From an uncultured bacterium (GTDB lineage Bacteria > 4484-113): DNA of 64,000 bases. The stretch lies in assembly GCA_963749125.1 (NCBI GenBank), contig CAVVLL010000006.1:27409-91408 (forward strand), written 5' to 3'. A model generated the notes under the pieces. The model saw nothing but the letters and a program-made list of their open reading frames with translations, made no database searches and was not told where the DNA came from. Position 1 is the stretch's first letter. Each line of letters begins with the position of its first letter. Positions 27,281 to 41,478 of the stretch are shown here, in pieces. Position numbers and translations under genes: made by a program.

Positions 27281-28672
27281 TTGAAGGTGCAGGAATACGA
27301 CCTGATTGTCATTGGCGCAGGCCCTGGGGGCTATGTCGCCGCTATCCGCGCAGGCCAGCTTGGGCTGAAGACCGCAATCGTTGAGAAGCGGTATTGGGGT
27401 GGAGTGTGCCTCAATATAGGCTGCATACCGAGTAAGTGCCTGCTGGAAGATACACACCTGTTCTACGAGTTACAGCATTCAGGAAAGGCGCGCGGAGTGA
27501 ACGTTGACGGCATCGCCTTTGACTGGGCCGCCATCCAGTCGCGGAAAGATGCGGTCGTGAAGCAGCTTACTGGCGGCGTGGAGATGCTCCTAAAGAAGCA
27601 GGGCGTTGATAAGCACTTTGGAACGGCTTCATTCATCGGCAGCCAAACAGCCAAGGTGATGGCTGAAGATGGTTCAGAAATCACCTTGGGTGCCAAGAAC
27701 TTCATCATCGCAACAGGCTCCGAGAGTGCTGACCTGCCGCATATCAAAGCTGATGGGCGCGTAGTCATCTCGTCCACCGAGGCGCTTTCACTGCCTGAAA
27801 TCCCAAAGACGATGGCGGTAATCGGGGCAGGGGCGATCGGCCTCGAGCTGGGCAGCGTTTACTCAAGGCTTGGGGCTGAAGTGACGGTTATTGAATTGAT
27901 GCCGCAGGTGCTTCCCGGCGCTGACAAGGAAATGGCCGATATGCTCGCCCGCGAAATGAAGAAGTGCGGCACGAAGATACATGTTGACAGCAAAGTCTCC
28001 GCGACGGAGTTGGGCGAAAGCGGCGCGAAGCTTCATGTTGAGGGCAAGTTCACAGGCGAGGTTGAAGCTGAAATAGTGTTGCTTGCAGTCGGCAGAAAGC
28101 CGGTAACAGCCGGCCTTGAACTGCAGGCGGCGGGCGTGGAACTATCAAACAAGGGATTTATCCTCGTTGATGATGGCCTCCGCACCAACACCCCGAACAT
28201 CTATGCTATCGGCGATGTTATCGGCGGAATGCTGCTTGCGCACAAGGCCAGCCATGAAGGCATAGGCGTCGCGGAAGCCATCGCCGGTGCGGGGTTGCCG
28301 ACTCGACATGCCGTTCCTTCCATCGTCTATACCGCGTCGGAGTTGGCGTCAATTGGCTTGACGGCTGTGCAGGCGCAGGAGTCGGGGAAGCAAATCAAGG
28401 AAGGCAAGTCTTTCTTCCGCGGCAATGGCCGGGCGATGGCGATGAACGCAATTGCGGGGATGGTCAAGGTGGTCGCGGATGCAGAGACTGACGCGCTGCT
28501 GGGCGTCCACATACTCGGAGCCTCAGCAGGCGAGCTGATACATGACGCTGCAGTGGCGCTAGCGGCGCATATGAGGCTTAGCGATTATCAGCGCGTTATG
28601 AGGGGCCATCCGACGCTTTCTGAGGCTATTACCGAAGCTGCGTTGGCAGCAGATAAGCGCGCTATACACTGA
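27281..28672 (+). CDS. lpdA: Dihydrolipoyl dehydrogenase
   Basis: GAGPGGYVAA, GGVCLNIGCIPSK redox disulfide, GAGAIGLE, HPTLSEA. Confidence 0.97.
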   Translation: MKVQEYDLIVIGAGPGGYVAAIRAGQLGLKTAIVEKRYWGGVCLNIGCIPSKCLLEDTHLFYELQHSGKARGVNVDGIAFDWAAIQSRKDAVVKQLTGGVEMLLKKQGVDKHFGTASFIGSQTAKVMAEDGSEITLGAKNFIIATGSESADLPHIKADGRVVISSTEALSLPEIPKTMAVIGAGAIGLELGSVYSRLGAEVTVIELMPQVLPGADKEMADMLAREMKKCGTKIHVDSKVSATELGESGAKLHVEGKFTGEVEAEIVLLAVGRKPVTAGLELQAAGVELSNKGFILVDDGLRTNTPNIYAIGDVIGGMLLAHKASHEGIGVAEAIAGAGLPTRHAVPSIVYTASELASIGLTAVQAQESGKQIKEGKSFFRGNGRAMAMNAIAGMVKVVADAETDALLGVHILGASAGELIHDAAVALAAHMRLSDYQRVMRGHPTLSEAITEAALAADKRAIH

Positions 28673-28782
28673 AAGTCGGCAGCCGGCATTGCGGATGAGT
28701 TGTTGATAATTTGCACAGCCGATTTAACGCGAAAAGGTATTGCATTTGCGGATAAGCTGGGACATCCTATCAGTGGTATACC

Positions 28783-29119
28783 CCGGCCCTGCGGAGGGTG
28801 CGTTCCTTGAAAGAAGGCCAAGTTGTTCCCAAGAGCATCCGTGCTACGCATCAATATGCTTCGGTATCTTGTGCAAAGCGCGGCAGCTCTGGAGAGCAGG
28901 CGCCACCGGCTTCCTCCTTCGAGAGAGAGACGACGTTTGCTCAAAGGGGGCGAGACGACGCGGGTTCGCATCAGCCACAAGCTCTTGCGGCGCGCTAAGT
29001 CTAGCCCCGGGGACCGGCTCTCGGTCCTTCCCAGGGGGAAGGTGTAGGCGAGTCTTCGGAATCATCTATAACCATCCAACCAAGTAACGTTCCCGGTGAT
29101 GCAGGGCCGGCCCCTTTTT
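28783..29119 (+). ncRNA. Candidate large structured non-coding RNA (6S-like closing stem, otherwise unassigned)
   Basis: 28783-28792 pairs perfectly with 29101-29110; 28796-28809 pairs with 29081-29094; internal UUCG-capped and GC-rich hairpins; T-tract after the 3' end; overlapping short ORFs lack protein-like features. Confidence 0.6.
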
Positions 29120-29131
29120 GACCGTTGTAGG

Positions 29132-29150
29132 GCCTCCGCCAGGAGGTTTT
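29132..29150 (+). terminator. Intrinsic terminator downstream of the RNA candidate
   Basis: GCCTCC-GCCA-GGAGGT then TTT. Confidence 0.6.
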
Positions 29151-29156
29151 GGGTAG

Positions 29157-29180
29157 AAGTGCCGCAGTAATGCGGCACTT
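29157..29180. terminator. Perfect hairpin, probable bidirectional terminator
   Basis: AAGTGCCGCA-GTAA-TGCGGCACTT. Confidence 0.8.
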
Positions 29181-29245
29181 TGTTATTCCGTGCTCATCAC
29201 AGCAGCGCTAGCGTCACTAAAGCGCAGCCGAAGCCAAACCAGCCT

Positions 29246-29926
29246 CTACCTTAAGCGGTCTATTATGACGATGGCCGCAAACCAAAGGATTGCGATTCCT
29301 GCGAGGATGAAGGGAAAGAGAAGTATCCCGTCCCAGGTGTGGTTCGAAACACCATAGCGTCCGGTTTCGCTCCACATTAGCAAGGCAACGACCAATAAAA
29401 TCGCTGGGCCGCTGGCCTGGCTATCAATCCAGCGCGGGTTGATTTTCTCATCCATCTTGAGCTGCTGTTCATCCATCGCCTGCCGCAGGGCATCGCGTTC
29501 CGCATCAGCCTCGGTATCCACGTTGCCTGATAGGTAGTCGACGCGGGTGTGGCGGGGTAACTCGCCGTCGCTAGCAGGGAACTCCGGCGCTTCCCTGTCA
29601 GCGCTTTCGGGTGAGACGGGGACAGCTACAGCTGCGTCAAGATGGCGCATCCTGCGCGACGTAGTCACTTGCTTGGTTTTTGGCGAAACGGTGGGATGCT
29701 TCGCCCTCACTGCATCTGCGACTTCGTATGCGCGCCCAATAGCTATCGTAGTATGGCAGTACGGGCAAGTGCTCAGCCAAGGCGGATGGTAACGGCCGCA
29801 GTTCGGGCACGGGCTAAGCGTCATCTCACATTGCGTGCAATAACATTCGGGCATGCTCAGCGGGAAATCGCAAAGCGGGCAGACGGGATCTCTCTCAGCT
29901 GCCATTACGCGGATTACGCCTGCCAA
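29246..29926 (-). CDS. Double zinc-ribbon membrane protein (paralog 2)
   Basis: CPLC, CTQC, CPNC, CPYC plus two C-terminal TM helices; likely start ATG 29905. Confidence 0.75.
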   Translation of the reverse strand: MAGVIRVMAAERDPVCPLCDFPLSMPECYCTQCEMTLSPCPNCGRYHPPWLSTCPYCHTTIAIGRAYEVADAVRAKHPTVSPKTKQVTTSRRMRHLDAAVAVPVSPESADREAPEFPASDGELPRHTRVDYLSGNVDTEADAERDALRQAMDEQQLKMDEKINPRWIDSQASGPAILLVVALLMWSETGRYGVSNHTWDGILLFPFILAGIAILWFAAIVIIDRLR

Positions 29927-30626
29927 ACGGCCGGTAGATTATGAAGTAGGAAATCGCGTAAACGAGAATGACGAGGACCAGGCCGACGGCAACCAAAGCG
30001 AGAGCGTCGCCATACCACGCCATGCCGATGCCTTCCACTTCAAACTCGGCAACTGATTTCAGCGACGGCCAAAGGAAGTAGTAGAAGAATACGAGTAATG
30101 CCAGCGCGAATACGAGGCGGAAGATGTGCGCGATAAAGAGATTGCGCCTGTAATGCGGGTTTACATAAGGGTTGATAGTGAACGGGTCGATGCGGTAGAT
30201 GTCATATGGGTCGTAGGGGTCATGCCGGTTTAGGACATCCATTGGATCGCGCTCATCTTCCACAACGCTATTTCCGCCAGCGAGCTTTGAAGAAACAGGC
30301 AGGCGACTTCCTAAATTTACAGCTGTATCAGCGCCATCTTGCGGCGCGGATGGGACAGCCTCTTCGCCTGCCGGTTCTGTCCTGGCCGGACCAATCTCCA
30401 GCATCGTCAGGCGCTCGGATGAAACTTGCGATTGGCTTGGCGGGGCGAGCTCGGTGGGCTCATCCTCAGGGAGCGAGCCTGGCAGCGGGCGGCCGCATGA
30501 CGTGCAAAACATTTCGTGGATATCTACAAGCGCCAGGCAGTGCGGGCATCCGCGAAAGCTCGCGCTGCAACCGACGCACGCCAAGTCGGGCATTGTCAGA
30601 TCACCGTTGCACTGCGGGCAGCGCAT
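29895..30626 (-). CDS. Double zinc-ribbon membrane protein (paralog 1)
   Basis: CPQC, CVGC, CPHC, CTSC plus two C-terminal TM helices; leaderless TG-C-TAAAAT promoter 6 nt upstream. Confidence 0.78.
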   Translation of the reverse strand: MRCPQCNGDLTMPDLACVGCSASFRGCPHCLALVDIHEMFCTSCGRPLPGSLPEDEPTELAPPSQSQVSSERLTMLEIGPARTEPAGEEAVPSAPQDGADTAVNLGSRLPVSSKLAGGNSVVEDERDPMDVLNRHDPYDPYDIYRIDPFTINPYVNPHYRRNLFIAHIFRLVFALALLVFFYYFLWPSLKSVAEFEVEGIGMAWYGDALALVAVGLVLVILVYAISYFIIYRPFGRRNPRNGS

Positions 30627-30692
30627 GGCACGATTTTAGCACAGCATGCTTGCAGCCTGAGGCCTGTTGATCATAATCACTGCGGCGTTCAA
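30554..30692. repeat. Direct repeat copy 1 (139 bp) flanking the photolyase gene
   Basis: Aligns by eye to 32072-32209 with about 20 differences including one indel. Confidence 0.92.
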
Positions 30693-32068
30693 CCTCGTTC
30701 AGCTGCGCCGTCGGCAAGCTTCTCCACGCGAGCGATGTAGGCCCATATGTTGAACTTGCGTTTGCATCCGTCATAGCTCATATAGCGTACTTTGCCAAAA
30801 ACCGGCCGCGCATTCCAAGCCCTGTCATGCAGCCCGCCAATGCTCCAGGCAAGGCCGGCATATCCATTCGGGTCGCGGCCGTCTAGCTGGTAGCGATCAT
30901 TCAGATAGATGGCGGTCTTGAGGGCTTGCTCTGGGCTTTCCGTCCATTCAAGGAGCTTCTTTGCCCAATACATTCGCATATAGCCGTGCATCCTCCCGCT
31001 GACGACCATCTCTCGCTGCGCCGCGTTCCAAAGTTCATCGTGGGTTTTGGACTGTTCAAGCTGGGCTTTGGTGTAGATATATGCGCGCTCGTCAGCACGA
31101 TGGACATCAAGCGTTGCCTTCGCCCAAGCAGGGAAAGCTAGAAATGAGTCGTAATGGGGATTGAACTCACAGAAGTTATCCGAAAGCTCCCGGCGGACAA
31201 TGAGTTCGTCCAGGAATTCATCCTTTGAAGACTGCGGGGCGGATGACGCCATAACCTCAAGCGCGACGCACTGGGCGGAGATTTGCCCAAAGTGAAGGTA
31301 AGGCGACAGGCCGGATTGGGCGTCTATGCCAGGATCATTCCGGAGCGACGGGTAGCTTTCCAGCTTATTATTGATGAAACCGTTCAATCGCGCGGCAGCG
31401 GCTCTTTCACCAGGAGGAATTGGATAATGCATACTGAGCTTTGAGCCTACGGAATCATGCGCCAGTCGCCAGTCGTTATTGAATCCCCCTAAGGCTTCAG
31501 CGAATGGATGCTTGCGAAGTGGCGGGAATTCAACTAGGAAAGTACCCATCATTCGTTTCAATTTCGGGCGAAGTGTATAAGCGCCGTATTCCTGCTTTTG
31601 CGAAGCCGCCCAACACGGGACAATGTTGTGGGCGTCAACTTCCAGCAGGGGGATATTCAGCTTGCGCGCTGCCTCGAGCTTCCACCTCTTTGGGAGGCGA
31701 AGAGGGTTGAAATCGGTAACAACACTCGATACCGATAGCTCTTCAGCCAACGCGCAAAGACTAGTTGGCGGTTCTCCTAAAAGCAGCGCTAAAGGGATAT
31801 TGCGTTTTCTCAGGCGGTCTTCCAATTGTTGAAGCCCTGCGAGCATGAAAGAACAGTGACTTGGCAGGGCGTTCAGGTATTTAGGGGCAAGGCAAAAGGC
31901 GACTACAAGCGGGACTTTCGATGCAAGCGCTAGCTCCTGGGCATGCAGCAATGCCCAGTTATCGTCAGCCCTCTGGTCGCGAGACATCCAATAGATAACC
32001 GGTCCGCGCTTGCGAAGCGGTTCTTTGTTCAGGCTGCGGATCCTGCGCTGGTCAACTCTAACGCTCAT
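30689..32068 (-). CDS. phr: Class II CPD DNA photolyase
   Basis: YWMSRDQRADDNWAL, SGLSPYLHFGQIS, MHGYMRMYWAKK, DGRDPNGYAGLAWSIGGLHDR. Confidence 0.95.
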   Translation of the reverse strand: MSVRVDQRRIRSLNKEPLRKRGPVIYWMSRDQRADDNWALLHAQELALASKVPLVVAFCLAPKYLNALPSHCSFMLAGLQQLEDRLRKRNIPLALLLGEPPTSLCALAEELSVSSVVTDFNPLRLPKRWKLEAARKLNIPLLEVDAHNIVPCWAASQKQEYGAYTLRPKLKRMMGTFLVEFPPLRKHPFAEALGGFNNDWRLAHDSVGSKLSMHYPIPPGERAAAARLNGFINNKLESYPSLRNDPGIDAQSGLSPYLHFGQISAQCVALEVMASSAPQSSKDEFLDELIVRRELSDNFCEFNPHYDSFLAFPAWAKATLDVHRADERAYIYTKAQLEQSKTHDELWNAAQREMVVSGRMHGYMRMYWAKKLLEWTESPEQALKTAIYLNDRYQLDGRDPNGYAGLAWSIGGLHDRAWNARPVFGKVRYMSYDGCKRKFNIWAYIARVEKLADGAAERG

Positions 32069-32144
32069 GGTGAAAGCGCGTGCTGCAACCGGTGCACGCC
32101 AGTGCGGGCATTGTTAGTTCTTCGTTGCACTGCGGGCAGCGCAT
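32058..32144 (-). other. 28-codon remnant ORF copying the 5' end of the zinc-ribbon gene, overlapping the phr start
   Basis: MRCPQCNEELTMPALACTGCSTRFHHER* vs MRCPQCNGDLTMPDLACVGCSASF; TAG at 32058-32060. Confidence 0.7.
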
Positions 32145-32209
32145 AACACGATTCTAGCACAGCATGCTTGCAGCCTGAGGGCTGGTGATAAAATCACTGC
32201 GGTGCTCAA
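32072..32209. repeat. Direct repeat copy 2 (138 bp), containing divergent promoters and the dinG GTG start
   Basis: Shared cores CGTTGCACTGCGGGCAGCGCAT and TAGCACAGCATGCTTGCAGCCTGAGG. Confidence 0.92.
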
Positions 32210-35019
32210 TGTCTCCTTCATCACGTCTGGAGAAGATGGCTTCACGCATACGGCGTTTGAGGCCGATGCCGGCTCGCGGACGCTCAATTGCGTAGAGATA
32301 TCACAACTCCCAAAAAACAAGCTGCGCAAATTGCAGTCTGAAGCGTTCATTCTCGCTGGAGTTTCGCCCAAGGAAGCCGGATTGCCTGAGGCCATGTGCG
32401 CGTCGGCGGAGGAAATAGCCTTTTTAGAAACGGGGAAGGTTGATTGCACAGCGCTTGAAGGAATCTTTCGGCGCGCTGAGTGCGAAGGTGCGGAAGCCTG
32501 GAAGGTGCAGGGCTGCGATGGCGAATGTCCTCAAGACATTCTAGGCGCGGCAGACGCAGTCGCTGGCTTGTGGACACTGCTGGAGGGCATTTCAAACAGG
32601 CTGCGCGCCGCGATTGAGCGGATAGCTTCCGAGACCGGTTTCCCGGTAGCGCTAATTACAATCTCGGAAAGCGAAAGCATACTTGGCGAAACCGCATATC
32701 ATCCCGCCGACGCTCGCGCCGACCTGCCCGCACGTGCACGGATGAGGGCCGACACGGCGCTGGATGCGCTGAAAAGCGTGCCCCGGCAAGAAGAGGTGTT
32801 CAGGAAGCTCCGCGAGAAGGAATACGCAAGCATGGGCTATGAATACCGCTCGGAGCAGGAGCAGTTCGCTAAGGCGGTGTCGGAAGCGCTGGAGTGCGAC
32901 GGCCACCTGCTTATTGAGGCGGGAACTGGTGTTGGGAAGTCGCTTGGCTACTTGATCCCAGCAGTGCGCTACGCGCTTTCTAAAAATGAGACGGTGCTAG
33001 TGTCTACGAATACGAAGATCCTGCAAGACCAGCTCCTGCTAAGCGATTACCCGAAGCTATGCGAATTGCTCAACTACCGGCTTCCGCCGCCGGTCGTGCT
33101 CAAGGGAAGGGAGAACTACCTGTGCTTGGAGAAGCTCAGGCTGCAAGTGCTCGGAACGCGGACGGACTTACGGGAGACGCTCGGCGAGCTGCGCGAGATC
33201 GGCGAAGGGCATGCGGTTGCGCTAACGCTCATGCGCCTTGCGCTGCATATCGCCACCGAAACATCGGGCGACTACGAGCACATAATGTTCCCATCGTGGC
33301 TTCCTTCGGATATCGCGCAGAGAATCAAGCGCATGCTCAGCGCCGCCTTTAGGGGATGCCTGCGCGACCGCTGCCCAATGCACAAGCAGTGCTACTTCTA
33401 CTCCCAGCGCGAGGCCGCGGAGAAGTCGTTGCTGGTCATCGTCAACCATGCGCTGCTATTTGCGCTGGCGAATCCCGCAGTAGGCGCAGACGACCAGATG
33501 GCGTCCTTCGTTGACAAGGCGCAGGTATGGGTGCTTGACGAGGCGCATAACCTTGAAGAAGTGCTGCTTGACCAGATGGGTGTTGCGCTGATTTCAGGCG
33601 ACATCATTGAGTTCATCAACGGGCTTCAGCGGCTGGTGCAGAACCGCGCGTTGGGAATGAGGCTGGGAATGCCAGTGAGCGAAGTGCCGGCCGACGACCA
33701 AGAAGCATTCGGCAAGCTCAAGACGCTGCAAACGGAGATACCGGGCTATGCGGAGAGGTGCTATGAGAGCTTCCGCAGCTTGATCGCCATTGCTGAAAGC
33801 GCATTCCAGCGCCTGGCAGACGACAGGGGAGGGGACACGCAGCGTTGGGACTTTACAGAGCCAAACCGCGAGGAGGTAGCCCAAGTCAAGCAGGAAATGG
33901 CCGAAGCCATCGCGACGTTCTCTGACTACCTCACAGACATGAACGGTGGCATGACGCTGCTTACCGAGCAGACCGCAGGCAACGCGGATAACTTCCTTTA
34001 CATCGACGACAGCCGCTACCAAATCCAGCTCCGCGAGGCGATAAACGTTTTTGTGTCGCTCAAAGAAGCATGTAAGATGCTGCTCAGCGACGAGGAGACC
34101 TGGGTCAAGTGGATGGAGGTCACGCGCGCAGGGCGCAGGCGCGACGTGTTCTGGATGATGGCAGCCTGCCCTGTGGTTGTTGGAACGCACTTCCTTGAGC
34201 TAATCAACGCCAGGAAGTCTGCGTTGATGGTCTCAGGCACGCTCGCGATTAACGGCAATTTCGGTTATGTGAAGCGCTGCTTGGGGCTTGAGGCGATGGA
34301 CGGCGCGCAAATGAAGGAAGTCGTCCTCTCATCGCCGTTCGACTTCAAACGCAATGCGCGAAGTCATCATCCCATCCGACATGCCTGAGCCCAGTTTCAA
34401 CGACCGGGCTGCGCATGATGTATACTTGGAAGCGCTGGCAGAACTCACGGCAAACTGAGTGCGCGTCTTTGGAGGCTCCACGCTGGTCCTATTCAATTCG
34501 TATGCCGACCTGCAGAAAGTAACCGAGATGTGCCAGGAGCTGTGCGGCGATGGCTATAAGCTCTTGATACAAGAGCGCGGAATCTCCAAGCACCAGCTTG
34601 TTGACCACTTCAAGAGTATGGAGAAGGCGGTCCTCTTCGGCGTAAGGAGCTTTTGGGAGGGCTTTGATATCAAAGGCGACGACCTCCAGTGCGTCATCAT
34701 AAGCCGCTTTCCGTTTCCGAACCTGCACGACCCGCTGACGGCGGGAAAAGCGCGCTACATAGACAGGCACGGCGGCAGCTCGTTTACCGACTACATGCTT
34801 CCCTATTCAATCATGAAGTTTACTCAAGGGTTCGGGAGGCTCATCAGGAGCACCGACGATTACGGCTGCGTGCTGCTGCTTGACGGGCGCGTACTGACGA
34901 AGCGGTATGGGCTGGACTTTCTGCGAAACCTGCCAGGGCCGACGATAGTGAAGCTGCCGAGGCACGATGTTGCCGAAGAGATGCAGACCTTCCTAAGCAA
35001 CAGAAGGAGGGATGCATAG
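32202..35019 (+). CDS. dinG: DinG/YoaA family ATP-dependent helicase, interrupted near 34360 (frameshift) and 34456 (in-frame TGA)
   Basis: EAGTGVGKS, KGRENYLC, Fe-S Cys CLRDRCPMHKQC, LDEAHNL; second part VLFNSY, SFWEGFDIKG, KFTQGFGRLIRS. Confidence 0.88.
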
Positions 35020-40380: not shown

Positions 40381-41478
40381 ATGCGTATGCTGCCATCTTC
40401 AAGCAGGCAGGGCACTGACAGCTACAGGGTAGCCCGTAAATACGCGCGGGGAACTGATGGCGCACCAGTGCGCACATTCCAAGGCCGGGAACTTCTCAAG
40501 CAAGACAAGATATTCAGCGAGCTTGCGGCAGGCAAAATCACCGTTGTTGAAGGTGAACGGAGCCAATTAGACGCGCTTGCCGACTACATCTCAAGGCGGC
40601 AGGGAGACATTGCCAGAGGCGACGGCGCGAGCGAGCCGCTATCCAGGCTGATGATTGAGGTTGACGCTAATAGGGCGCATAAAGTCGATCCGCCAATTGA
40701 ACAGAAATATCTAGCTTTGTTATGCGGCGAGAGTGAGCTTAACGAAGGCGAGATGGTGCTAGTCCCCTACACTGCGGTGAAGAAGCTCATAGCGAAGCTC
40801 AGCGAGAAGTGGCGCGTGGATGCGCTTGGGACGTGGCTGTCAACAGGGGAAGACGTGCTTCCCCCACGTTCGCAGGAGACATACTCGCTATTCAAGGAAG
40901 CGATAGTTGATGCAAACAGTATAATGCCTTCCGAGGCTGCGATACTGGACATGGGATGCGGCTGCGGCGTACTAGGTCTTATTGCAGCGAAAGAGCTTGC
41001 GGAGAAGGGCGCGAAGGTTACGGCTACCGATGTGATGCCGGAAGCCATCGGCAGTGCGCTTATTAACGTTGAGAGGCTAATTGAAGAAGGATTGTTGCAT
41101 GAAGGCTCAGTTATAGTGTCACAGCCCGGCGATATGTTTGAACGGATGGGAGAGGCGCGCTACGACATGATCATATTCAATGCGCCCTGGGTCGTGGCGC
41201 CGGTTAGGTCGCGCAGCGATGTTGCGCTAAATGATGAGAAGCAACAGGTGCTTGAAGCGTTTATGTCGCAAGCACGAGGGCACTTGTGGCCTAATGGCGC
41301 GGTCATTCTCGGTTATGCCGATAACAGCGGAGACAAAGCTGTGGCACGCGCAAAGCAGTTAGCGGCCGATGCAGGCTTTTGCATCACGCATGAGAGGTCG
41401 GCGCGCGTGGCGACGCACAGGAAGAAGAACAAGTGGGAACGCATCTTCGTGTGGGAGCTTCGGCTGATGCAGAGCTAG
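40381..41478 (+). CDS. Class I SAM-dependent methyltransferase (HemK/MTS-like)
   Basis: ILDMGCGCGVLG motif I, ATDV, GDMF, FNAPW motif IV. Confidence 0.85.
   Translation: MRMLPSSSRQGTDSYRVARKYARGTDGAPVRTFQGRELLKQDKIFSELAAGKITVVEGERSQLDALADYISRRQGDIARGDGASEPLSRLMIEVDANRAHKVDPPIEQKYLALLCGESELNEGEMVLVPYTAVKKLIAKLSEKWRVDALGTWLSTGEDVLPPRSQETYSLFKEAIVDANSIMPSEAAILDMGCGCGVLGLIAAKELAEKGAKVTATDVMPEAIGSALINVERLIEEGLLHEGSVIVSQPGDMFERMGEARYDMIIFNAPWVVAPVRSRSDVALNDEKQQVLEAFMSQARGHLWPNGAVILGYADNSGDKAVARAKQLAADAGFCITHERSARVATHRKKNKWERIFVWELRLMQS

Follow-up and report, generated by a model that had tools for sequence, protein, structure and literature searches.

The stretch of DNA analysed here (the window) comprises 64,000 nucleotides of a single contig (C6:27409-91408) belonging to a 1.8-Mb metagenome-assembled genome (MAG; designated G000) of an uncultured bacterium, the MAG being 62% complete. 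The subject of this report is an open reading frame (ORF) for a photolyase, phr, which lies in this window between two direct repeats and directly next to a helicase gene and a zinc-ribbon gene, the order along the locus being helicase, copy 2 of the repeat, phr, copy 1 of the repeat and zinc-ribbon gene. The relevant features, in window coordinates, are the following.

29246..29905, minus strand: second zinc-ribbon membrane protein (ZnR3), probably starting with the ATG at 29905 and thereby overlapping the end of ZnR1 by 11 nt, the geometry also seen between the remnant ORF and phr.
29895..30626, minus strand: ZnR1, 243 residues, double zinc-ribbon N-terminus and C-terminal membrane segment, called from homologues (PF12773 scores below cut-off).
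30554..30692, unstranded: copy 1, the downstream repeat, which gives ZnR1 back its promoter and first 25 codons and whose helicase-side half is decaying.
30633..30641, minus strand: extended -10 box TGCTAAAAT, 6 nt ahead of the ATG of the zinc-ribbon gene (30626).
30670..30691, plus strand: degraded second version of the promoter and start of the helicase (CATAAT, TG displaced, GTG changed to GCG at 30685-30687).
30689..32068, minus strand: phr, class II cyclobutane pyrimidine dimer (CPD) photolyase, 459 residues, called from PF00875, TIGR00591 and the Methanosarcina mazei structures 2xry/8oet.
32058..32144, minus strand: remnant ORF of 28 codons (MRCPQCNEELTMPALACTGCSTRFHHER), of which codons 1-25 come from the zinc-ribbon gene.
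32072..32209, unstranded: copy 2, the upstream repeat, a leaderless promoter region predicted to work on both strands, together with codons 1-3 of the helicase and codons 1-25 of the zinc-ribbon gene.
32151..32159, minus strand: extended -10 box TGCTAGAAT, 6 nt ahead of the ATG of the remnant ORF (32144), the predicted promoter for the remnant ORF, for phr and for read-through.
32186..32204, plus strand: helicase promoter TGATAAAAT, with the box at 32186-32194, 7 nt of spacing and a leaderless GTG at 32202.
32202..35019, plus strand: DinG/YoaA-like helicase, called from profile matches; in relatives it is a single ORF of 934-939 residues.

The predicted product of phr is a class II CPD photolyase. 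Namely, the protein scores 601.7 bits against the TIGR00591 (phr2) profile, for which the cut-off is 550.05, and covers profile positions 2-452 out of 453, while its N-terminal photolyase alpha/beta domain matches PF00875 with an E-value of 3.6e-34. What is more, it is colinear with the solved class II enzyme of M. mazei (PDB 2XRY, 8OET) over residues 6-189 and 216-451 (E about 1e-152), thus resembling it practically over its full length and possessing, just like it, a C-terminal helical domain that binds flavin adenine dinucleotide (FAD) in addition to the alpha/beta domain; class I enzymes, in comparison, score only about 66 bits. The two proteins share the blocks WMSRDQR..DNWAL, MHGYMRMYWAKK and NGYAG.AWSIGG.HDRAW, and their best stretches, as counted on the alignment, are approximately 55% (N-terminal) and 67% (C-terminal) identical. 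It had been suggested in the first-pass annotation of this DNA, made from sequence alone, that a light-dependent repair gene would be remarkable in a probable anaerobe. This view had to be given up: class II photolyases are widespread in MAGs of anaerobes, and the closest structure comes from M. mazei, itself a strict anaerobe.

The two direct repeats, at 30554-30692 and 32072-32209, are approximately 139 nt long and, in a MAFFT alignment, 86% identical with a single 1-nt indel; a repeat search gives the same 86% for the gap-free core (30554-30671 against 32072-32189), and the exact runs common to both copies measure 22-26 nt. A DNA search of the whole MAG returns exactly two copies, at 100% (E 6.9e-68) and 86% (E 6.8e-40), in agreement with self-BLAST, so that the repeat pair first noticed from the sequence alone is fully borne out. 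Its content, on the other hand, had been described only in part. The repeat was initially read as the promoter of the zinc-ribbon gene followed by about 24 of its codons, and, indeed, a minus-strand TGC-TA(A/G)AAT element, followed by 6 nt and an ATG, is found in both copies. However, the plus-strand leaderless promoter of the helicase had been overlooked: the repeat spans from helicase codon 3 to zinc-ribbon codon 25 and is, in other words, the complete back-to-back leaderless promoter region of the DinG/YoaA-like helicase and the zinc-ribbon gene, including helicase codons 1-3 and zinc-ribbon codons 1-25. ZnR1 is the gene whose 5' end underwent duplication. As claimed from the outset, the inserted DNA is essentially the phr ORF and nothing else, with the native N-terminus beginning at the junction. 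In particular, the phr stop codon TGA (30689-30691) falls in the first bases of copy 1, within the remnant of helicase codons 2-3, while the phr ATG at 32068 lies 1-4 nt past copy 2, depending on where the end of the repeat is drawn; if a 1-nt indel is allowed, the similarity of copy 2 may extend up to the phr ATG itself. The degenerate helicase promoter in copy 1 faces antisense into the 3' end of phr.

Where does the locus stand without phr? In five related loci, the helicase and zinc-ribbon genes are divergent, with about 60 nt between their starts and no phr (G005, G008, L126, L130 and a contig of P0123, the last by gene order only), and all four of these with readable DNA (G005, G008, L126 and L130) carry a single copy of the region. 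An empty site with one repeat copy, as the first-pass annotation had proposed to look for, thus does exist. In G001, which belongs to the same genus as G000 and is identical to L128, the zinc-ribbon genes have been lost altogether. Judging by the helicase, the empty-site relatives are outgroups: L130 and G005 exhibit 50-59% amino acid identity to G000 and L126 59% over 59 aligned N-terminal residues, as compared with 89-91% within the group formed by G000, L116 and L119. The filled site, in turn, is common to four lineages (G000, L116, L119 and L124/L125). A search of 5.8 billion proteins yielded three close homologues of phr (84%, 84% and 75% identical), all of them in the order helicase, phr, ZnR1, ZnR3, Lpd and DUF7669, with all other homologues at 61% or below. 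Both flanking repeats are present in L116 (80% over 94 nt, spacing 1515 nt) and in L119 (84% over 140 nt, spacing 1517 nt). The repeat boundaries, running from TTGA... to ...TTTCRC, are identical in G000 and L119, which argues for one event.

Is the gene a newcomer? This photolyase gene is carried by none of the eight genomes of the same family as G000 that made up our comparison set, and the best homologues outside the phr-bearing group are at most 61% identical, in keeping with the original proposal that phr was acquired. The codon-usage check that had been recommended along with it was carried out and gave an ordinary result: the third-position GC content (GC3) and the codon fit of phr lie between the 14th and 21st percentiles, which is no signal, and compositional foreignness was therefore rejected, an outcome that fits an old event. 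Judging from its sequence and distribution, phr is a horizontally acquired gene, and an old one. In third codon positions, phr of G000 is 74% identical to that of L116/L119 and 59% identical to that of L125, while the helicase of G000 is 58% identical to that of L124 from about codon 400 on and 37% identical, i.e. saturated, over the first 400 codons. These values place L124/L125 within the same phr-bearing clade, and, since the insertion is common to lineages whose phr third positions are only 59-74% identical and its codon usage is ordinary, the event must be ancient. In short, the insertion is real, old and stable, and it is not a recent cassette. The simplest history is a single insertion-duplication in the ancestor of the clade, kept ever since.

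As for the vehicle, transposase or integrase domains are absent among the called genes within about 5-6 kb in the relatives, and a repeat search of the window found no terminal inverted repeats at the ends of the insert, both in line with the earlier remark that no mobile-element gene is nearby. For the same reasons, and given a duplication of 139 bp as opposed to 2-14 bp, we rejected a transposon, insertion sequence (IS) or integron cassette; phage integration was likewise set aside, its defining features being absent. A simple tandem duplication of a unit containing phr can be discarded as well, because it is the helicase, rather than a second phr, that lies upstream of copy 2, and nothing supports the retro-insertion of a leaderless mRNA as a source of the ORF-only insert.

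Turning to expression, the locus follows a leaderless-type layout throughout, i.e. TGCTAGAAT-N6-ATG for the remnant ORF, TGCTAAAAT-N6-ATG for ZnR1 and TGATAAAAT-N7-GTG for the helicase, with the helicase and zinc-ribbon boxes conserved across the family. The helicase arrangement of -10 box, 7 nt and GTG recurs in G001, L126 and L130, the same -10 box stands beside the helicase start in G005-G008, and the box of the remnant ORF is kept in L116, L119, L126 and L130. Leaderless-type promoters are a feature of this genome in general: TGnTAnnnT is found 5-8 nt ahead of 5.1% of the first starts of 1158 long ORFs as opposed to 0.1% of internal codons, meaning that extended -10 boxes are enriched about 50-fold at first starts genome-wide. 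A scan for classical sigma-70 promoters with -35 and -10 elements found none here, the boxes in question being extended -10 elements without a -35. By contrast with its neighbours, phr exhibits no signals of its own. Inspection of the window and of the relatives revealed no -10 box upstream of its ATG, and none of the Shine-Dalgarno (SD) cores GGAG, GAGG or AGGA occurs within 16 nt before the ATG in G000, L116 or L119, in agreement with the initial impression that a ribosome-binding site is lacking. No terminator was found between phr and ZnR1. The promoter in copy 2, together with the remnant ORF, is consequently the only visible expression signal for phr, just as had been surmised when promoter capture was first proposed. 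The remnant ORF, also recognised then, has its TAG at 32058-32060 and overlaps the phr start by 11 nt (ATGAGCGTTAG); its 28 codons and the overlap of ...CAT GAG nnT TAG with the phr ATG are identical in three lineages (G000, L116 and L119).

From these elements one can assemble an account of how phr came to be placed and expressed. Namely, a foreign class II photolyase ORF would have been joined at a duplication of about 139 bp in the ancestor of the G000, L116, L119 and L124/L125 lineages. The likeliest beginning would be a pair of breaks at a distance of 139 bp, either staggered or located on sister chromosomes, with the foreign DNA joined as filler and the joints perhaps guided by microhomologies such as ATG, as the zinc-ribbon GGATGC can be aligned with the phr ATG at the junction. 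A single duplicative event is favoured because the insert consists of the ORF alone and the ends of the repeat coincide with the ends of the ORF. Since then, on the plus strand of copy 2, the helicase mRNA would begin at its GTG, while on the minus strand an mRNA would begin at the ATG of the 28-codon zinc-ribbon remnant. From this 5'-terminal AUG, loaded ribosomes would translate the 28-codon ORF, reach its stop 8 nt beyond the phr AUG and start anew at the latter. Copy 1 would supply ZnR1 with its promoter and first 25 codons, and read-through past phr could add to its transcription. Finally, the two copies, which are 76-95% alike depending on the segment in G000 and L119, may stay so partly because they hold working promoters and start codons and partly due to occasional gene conversion. 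In this sense, the expression of phr probably relies on elements borrowed from its neighbour, namely the promoter, the start codon and the first 28 codons. The transcription start sites, the re-initiation coupling and the one-step character of the duplicative insertion are what we infer from the layout of the DNA.

Coupling to the remnant ORF is the best reading because phr has neither a Shine-Dalgarno sequence nor a promoter of its own, and termination-reinitiation, for which 70S ribosomes may be used, is well established as a mechanism (PMC6728339, PMC12548453). It is further favoured by the native ZnR1/ZnR3 junction, where the overlap also amounts to 11 nt, by the ORF length and overlap that were kept in three lineages, and by L125, in which a TAGAAT box lies upstream of phr and a short ORF ends on the phr start as ATGA. 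That said, a number of observations pull in the opposite direction. An overlap of 11 nt permits coupling but is not the preferred geometry in this genome, where 5 junctions have it as compared with 51 at -4, and re-initiation is reported to lose efficiency as the overlap lengthens (PMC12548453). The RNA fold at the junction of remnant ORF and phr is ordinary (z +1.1), on account of which a coupling of the unfolding type was dropped. Leaderless short ORFs abut long ORFs no more often than expected genome-wide (20 observed, 19.5 expected), and the idea that such ORFs commonly feed long ones across the genome thus fails its control. The peptide of the remnant ORF is not kept as a zinc ribbon, as C17F in L119 demonstrates. 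Against the account as a whole stands L124/L125, in which the remnant of zinc-ribbon codons upstream of phr is unrecognisable (alignment z at most 2.5), so that the duplication cannot be demonstrated there. The assembly check rests on assemblies of relatives and contigs of other runs as opposed to reads of the sample itself, and we know of no well-characterised bacterial mechanism that would accomplish a 139-bp duplication together with an insertion in one step. Weighing all this, we are fairly confident of the structural and evolutionary part of the reading, whereas for translational coupling, which is predicted from the layout, we see the scales as evenly balanced; the account as a whole, in which an ancestral insertion of phr at a 139-bp duplication left copy 2 to express phr via the remnant ORF, appears reasonably probable to us.

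Would the same facts allow for a different explanation? One could argue that the remnant ORF is a silent relic, with phr translated by SD-independent internal initiation from the captured promoter and the overlap having no function. Of the crude gene starts in this genome, no more than roughly one in four has an SD-like motif, which means that SD-independent initiation must be common, and, moreover, selection on the frame cannot be proved from just three lineages that are closely related, while the zinc-binding cysteines have been partly lost (C17F in L119) and the peptide itself is unconserved. On the other hand, the usual leaderless start signal in this genome, a 5'-terminal AUG 6 nt past an extended -10 box, is found in every upstream copy, the length of the ORF and its exact overlap are the same in three lineages despite 8-21% nucleotide change, and the short ORF that ends on the phr start in L125 is a different one. 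We therefore judge a functionless remnant to be somewhat unlikely. Still less likely, in our estimate, is a history in two steps, whereby phr was inserted without any duplication and the promoter and 5' end of the zinc-ribbon gene were copied ahead of it later and selected for expression. Such a history would agree with L124/L125, where phr occupies the same site, only 60 nt from the helicase, with no recognisable remnant of zinc-ribbon codons, and a younger duplication would also fit the identity of the two copies in G000 (84-86%), which is no lower than that between orthologous copies of different lineages. However, the ends of the repeat match both ends of the phr ORF exactly, as a single event predicts, gene conversion accounts for the high identity of the copies, and the region upstream of phr in L124/L125, having been overwritten by a divergent allele, does not represent a clean ancestral state. 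What is more, L125 retains two TAGAAT promoter modules, of which the downstream one keeps GTTGAA, a remnant of the helicase start.

The remaining two alternatives concern the reality and the permanence of the arrangement. A chimeric or mis-joined MAG contig could be suspected, as the MAG has a completeness of 62%, no reads of its own could be located, and two lesions in the adjacent helicase could be consensus errors. Yet the same architecture occurs in contigs from at least eight other, independent samples, put together by three assemblers (Logan, metaSPAdes and MEGAHIT). In particular, a 4643-nt contig of run X15 is colinear over 30442-32079, contigs of runs X1 and X10 continue past the start of phr into copy 2, and at 86% identity the repeats share no word long enough to mislead an assembler. 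An artefact of this kind has a practically negligible probability, and misassembly of the phr locus is excluded. The two findings that, according to the first-pass annotation, would have counted against the arrangement, namely a misjoin at either repeat and relatives that carry both copies without phr, both came out in its favour, the junctions being real and the phr-less relatives having one copy each. One may also picture phr as an excisable cassette that is frequently deleted by recombination between the repeats, such that its presence or absence would be a polymorphism within populations. The repeats are direct and contain exact runs of 22-26 nt, gene conversion has taken place in the L119 lineage, and the locus is a recombination mosaic across lineages, so that clean excision, as originally suggested, is possible in principle, the conversion in L119 showing that the copies do recombine. 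Against this, a joint skipping about 1518 nt was sought and not encountered among the contigs of eight metagenome runs, which is weak evidence, as assembler contigs reveal presence and not absence. All empty-site relatives are outgroups by helicase divergence and not revertants, and phr has been kept through divergence down to 59% third-position identity. Frequent loss thus strikes us as very improbable.

How the two copies have interacted over time can be read from L116 and L119. In the coding part of the repeat, the upstream copies of these two lineages are 92% alike and the downstream copies 95%, with 14 sites of orthologue type and none of paralogue type. The copies group by position, and the duplication therefore predates the split between L116 and L119. 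In the promoter part, both L119 copies have six substitutions in common within a contiguous stretch of 38 nt that is bracketed by markers of orthologue type: they read CACGG, TTCGG and AAGGAC where both G000 copies read CGCAG, CTCAGG and AAGCAT. By our own count, the two copies in L119 differ at 3 of 61 positions in the promoter part (95% identity) and at 19 of 80 in the coding part (76%). Such a pattern is the signature of a short gene-conversion tract, and the outcome seen for recombination between the repeats is homogenisation and not excision. A further detail of the same locus is that the post-conversion downstream copy (L119:7295-7360) has an intact helicase-type promoter with its GTG (TGATAGAAT-N7-GTG). 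This promoter faces antisense into the 3' end of phr, and an antisense transcript is possible.

The history of L124/L125 is more involved. In L124 (774-3632), the helicase is a mosaic in which the first 400 residues are 36-73% identical to G000 in windows of 100 residues, while the rest is 84-98% identical. This suggests either that divergent lineages have recombined at a distance of about 1.2 kb from the phr site or that the Logan contig is a chimera, the 3' half of the L124 helicase being known from one Logan contig only. In L124/L125, the 5' half of the helicase and the region upstream of phr appear to have been replaced by a very divergent allele, which would be why no remnant is recognisable in L125. 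The upstream region of L125 had also been considered, by eye, as a decayed zinc-ribbon remnant, and this was dropped as not significant in comparison with shuffled sequences.

It is instructive to compare the phr locus with known ways in which genes obtain a promoter. Capture by duplication joints has been described for his fusions (Anderson and Roth 1978), for cit (Blount et al. 2012) and by Li and Bock (2019), all three as reviewed in PMC11111574, and the likeness consists in a gene without signals that comes to lie directly behind a copy of a resident promoter, with the original still serving its own gene. The joints, which form by illegitimate recombination or microhomology, are similar as well. 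At phr, the promoter copy lies upstream of a non-homologous gene, the original still precedes ZnR1, and the relatives that lack phr preserve the single-copy ancestral state. However, the unit at phr is only 139 bp long, a foreign ORF sits at the join and there is no second phr upstream. Moreover, unlike the laboratory cases, it comprises a whole bidirectional promoter with a start codon and 25 codons, since promoter and start are inseparable in a leaderless gene, and it is natural, ancient and fixed across species. A related phenomenon is promoter propagation: Matus-Garcia, Nijveen and van Passel (Nucleic Acids Res, 2012) reportedly surveyed near-identical upstream regions standing before non-homologous genes within one genome, and these are said to be upstream regions in general, often near mobile elements. 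The copy at phr differs in that it carries first codons, as a remnant ORF that ends on the phr start, and in having no mobile element.

Two further comparisons bear on the remnant ORF. In mycobacteria, leaderless short ORFs open polycistronic mRNAs and can control the gene downstream (PMC4633059; bioRxiv 10.1101/834739). These (Shell et al. 2015; Canestrari et al.) resemble the remnant ORF in their 5'-terminal AUG after a -10 box and in being rich in cysteine, with 4 Cys in 28 codons here. They are, however, dedicated regulatory leaders, such as cysteine-responsive attenuators, whereas the remnant ORF is visibly derived, as a shortened paralogue, from the 5' end of ZnR1 and has lost one Cys in L119. 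With termination-reinitiation pairs (Huber et al. 2019, PMC6728339; reviewed in PMC12548453), on the other hand, it shares a co-directional overlap of a few bases and the absence of a downstream SD, stop and start overlapping at phr with no SD for the downstream gene, as well as the proposal that one ribosome, possibly a 70S particle, translates both ORFs. The usual pairs overlap by 4 or 1 nt instead of 11, and at phr the upstream partner is a gene fragment that has no evident function of its own. All in all, promoter capture by duplication joints is already known, and as a class II enzyme the photolyase is unremarkable. What is new here is the natural capture of a bidirectional leaderless promoter that was kept through speciation, where a stub of a host gene would serve as the first cistron, the foreign ORF lies precisely at the join and the copies have evolved in concert.

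These features bear on how horizontally acquired genes gain expression in a new host, a question for which laboratory work favours duplication-based capture. The phr locus provides a natural, fixed and phylogenetically bracketed case, in which empty and filled sites, the two joints and a number of descendant lineages are all available. Its leaderless twist is that the borrowed promoter brings a start codon along, so that the stub of the host gene ends exactly on the phr start. In addition, the locus preserves concerted evolution between two 139-bp repeats 1.5 kb apart, and it brings together, in back-to-back orientation and under a common control region, a predicted light-dependent repair enzyme and a DNA-repair helicase.

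Is phr an isolated case in this genome? On contig C5 (locus L131), the leaderless-type promoter of ribE, the gene for riboflavin synthase, together with a spacing of 8 nt, the ATG and the first 10 codons (MFTGIIREVG), i.e. CCCTGTTATACT-N8-ATG and onwards, is found in four copies, at the following positions.

C5:33499 (L131:2500): ribE unit.
C5:35039 (L131:4040): ribE unit.
C5:35808 (L131:4809): ribE unit.
C5:38306 (L131:7307): ribE unit.

One copy precedes ribE itself, and the other three precede two paralogous genes for 448 residues each and a gene for 195 residues. The three extra copies form ORFs of 21-24 codons, which end 1 nt overlapping the gene start, 4 nt overlapping it (with an SD inside) or 2 nt before it. 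None of the eight family genomes has the 448-residue accessory genes, and G001 has a single copy of the promoter, with about 300 nt where G000 has about 6.4 kb. Here, a mobile element is present, namely an IS481-type transposase within the block (C5:37328-38248). The ribE case supports the notion that copying a promoter together with first codons is a recurrent way to express accessory genes in this genome. Going one step further, one may wonder whether in leaderless-rich bacteria the portable unit of expression consists of promoter, start codon and first codons. Acquired genes would then be domesticated by the duplicative capture of this unit, the truncated host ORF serving as an obligatory first cistron that loads ribosomes and hands them on as 70S particles, and the phr and ribE loci would be instances of a general rule. 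We consider this possible but doubtful. If it holds, further instances might be sought in phyla with many leaderless mRNAs, among them Actinomycetota and Deinococcota.

Several observations on the surroundings and on the searches remain to be mentioned. The helicase gene is broken in G000 by a net +1 frameshift at about 34350-34366 and, some 100 nt later, by an in-frame TGA (34456-34458) where relatives have GCG; these lesions are either real decay or consensus errors of the MAG. On the other side of the locus, the non-coding stretch at 28672-29246 of the window, which follows lpdA, shows nucleotide conservation with G001 (L029:1660-1960) and matches no Rfam family; scanning both the window and the same-genus locus against Rfam returned zero matches altogether. 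The metagenome runs that were searched contained nothing of the strain of the window beyond two contigs of 151 nt, and a scan by pattern of metagenome contigs of the Joint Genome Institute (JGI) for further lineages gave no match. Two short metagenome contigs are probably assembly chimeras, namely one in which the N-terminus of UbiA is fused to the C-terminus of ZnR1 (L127:1-661) and another in which an unrelated ORF is fused to the C-terminus of phr (L145:1-313).

Other direct repeats were noticed elsewhere in the MAG. A repeat of 126 nt with 92% identity (C15:39908-40033 and 41142-41267, locus L132) lies around an SBF/ACR3-like transporter gene and duplicates the 3' end of the upstream gene, the SD and the first 9 codons of the transporter, and it looks like the remnant of a tandem duplication. 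On C2, an intergenic repeat of 192 nt with 95% identity and GC-rich hairpins (66388-66577 and 67260-67451), which may be a repeated RNA element, surrounds a membrane ORF of 194 residues. Finally, a repeat of 92 nt with 92% identity (C5:130746-130836 and 133418-133509), containing CCCTATAAT, stands on either side of a lipoprotein-like gene for 812 residues.

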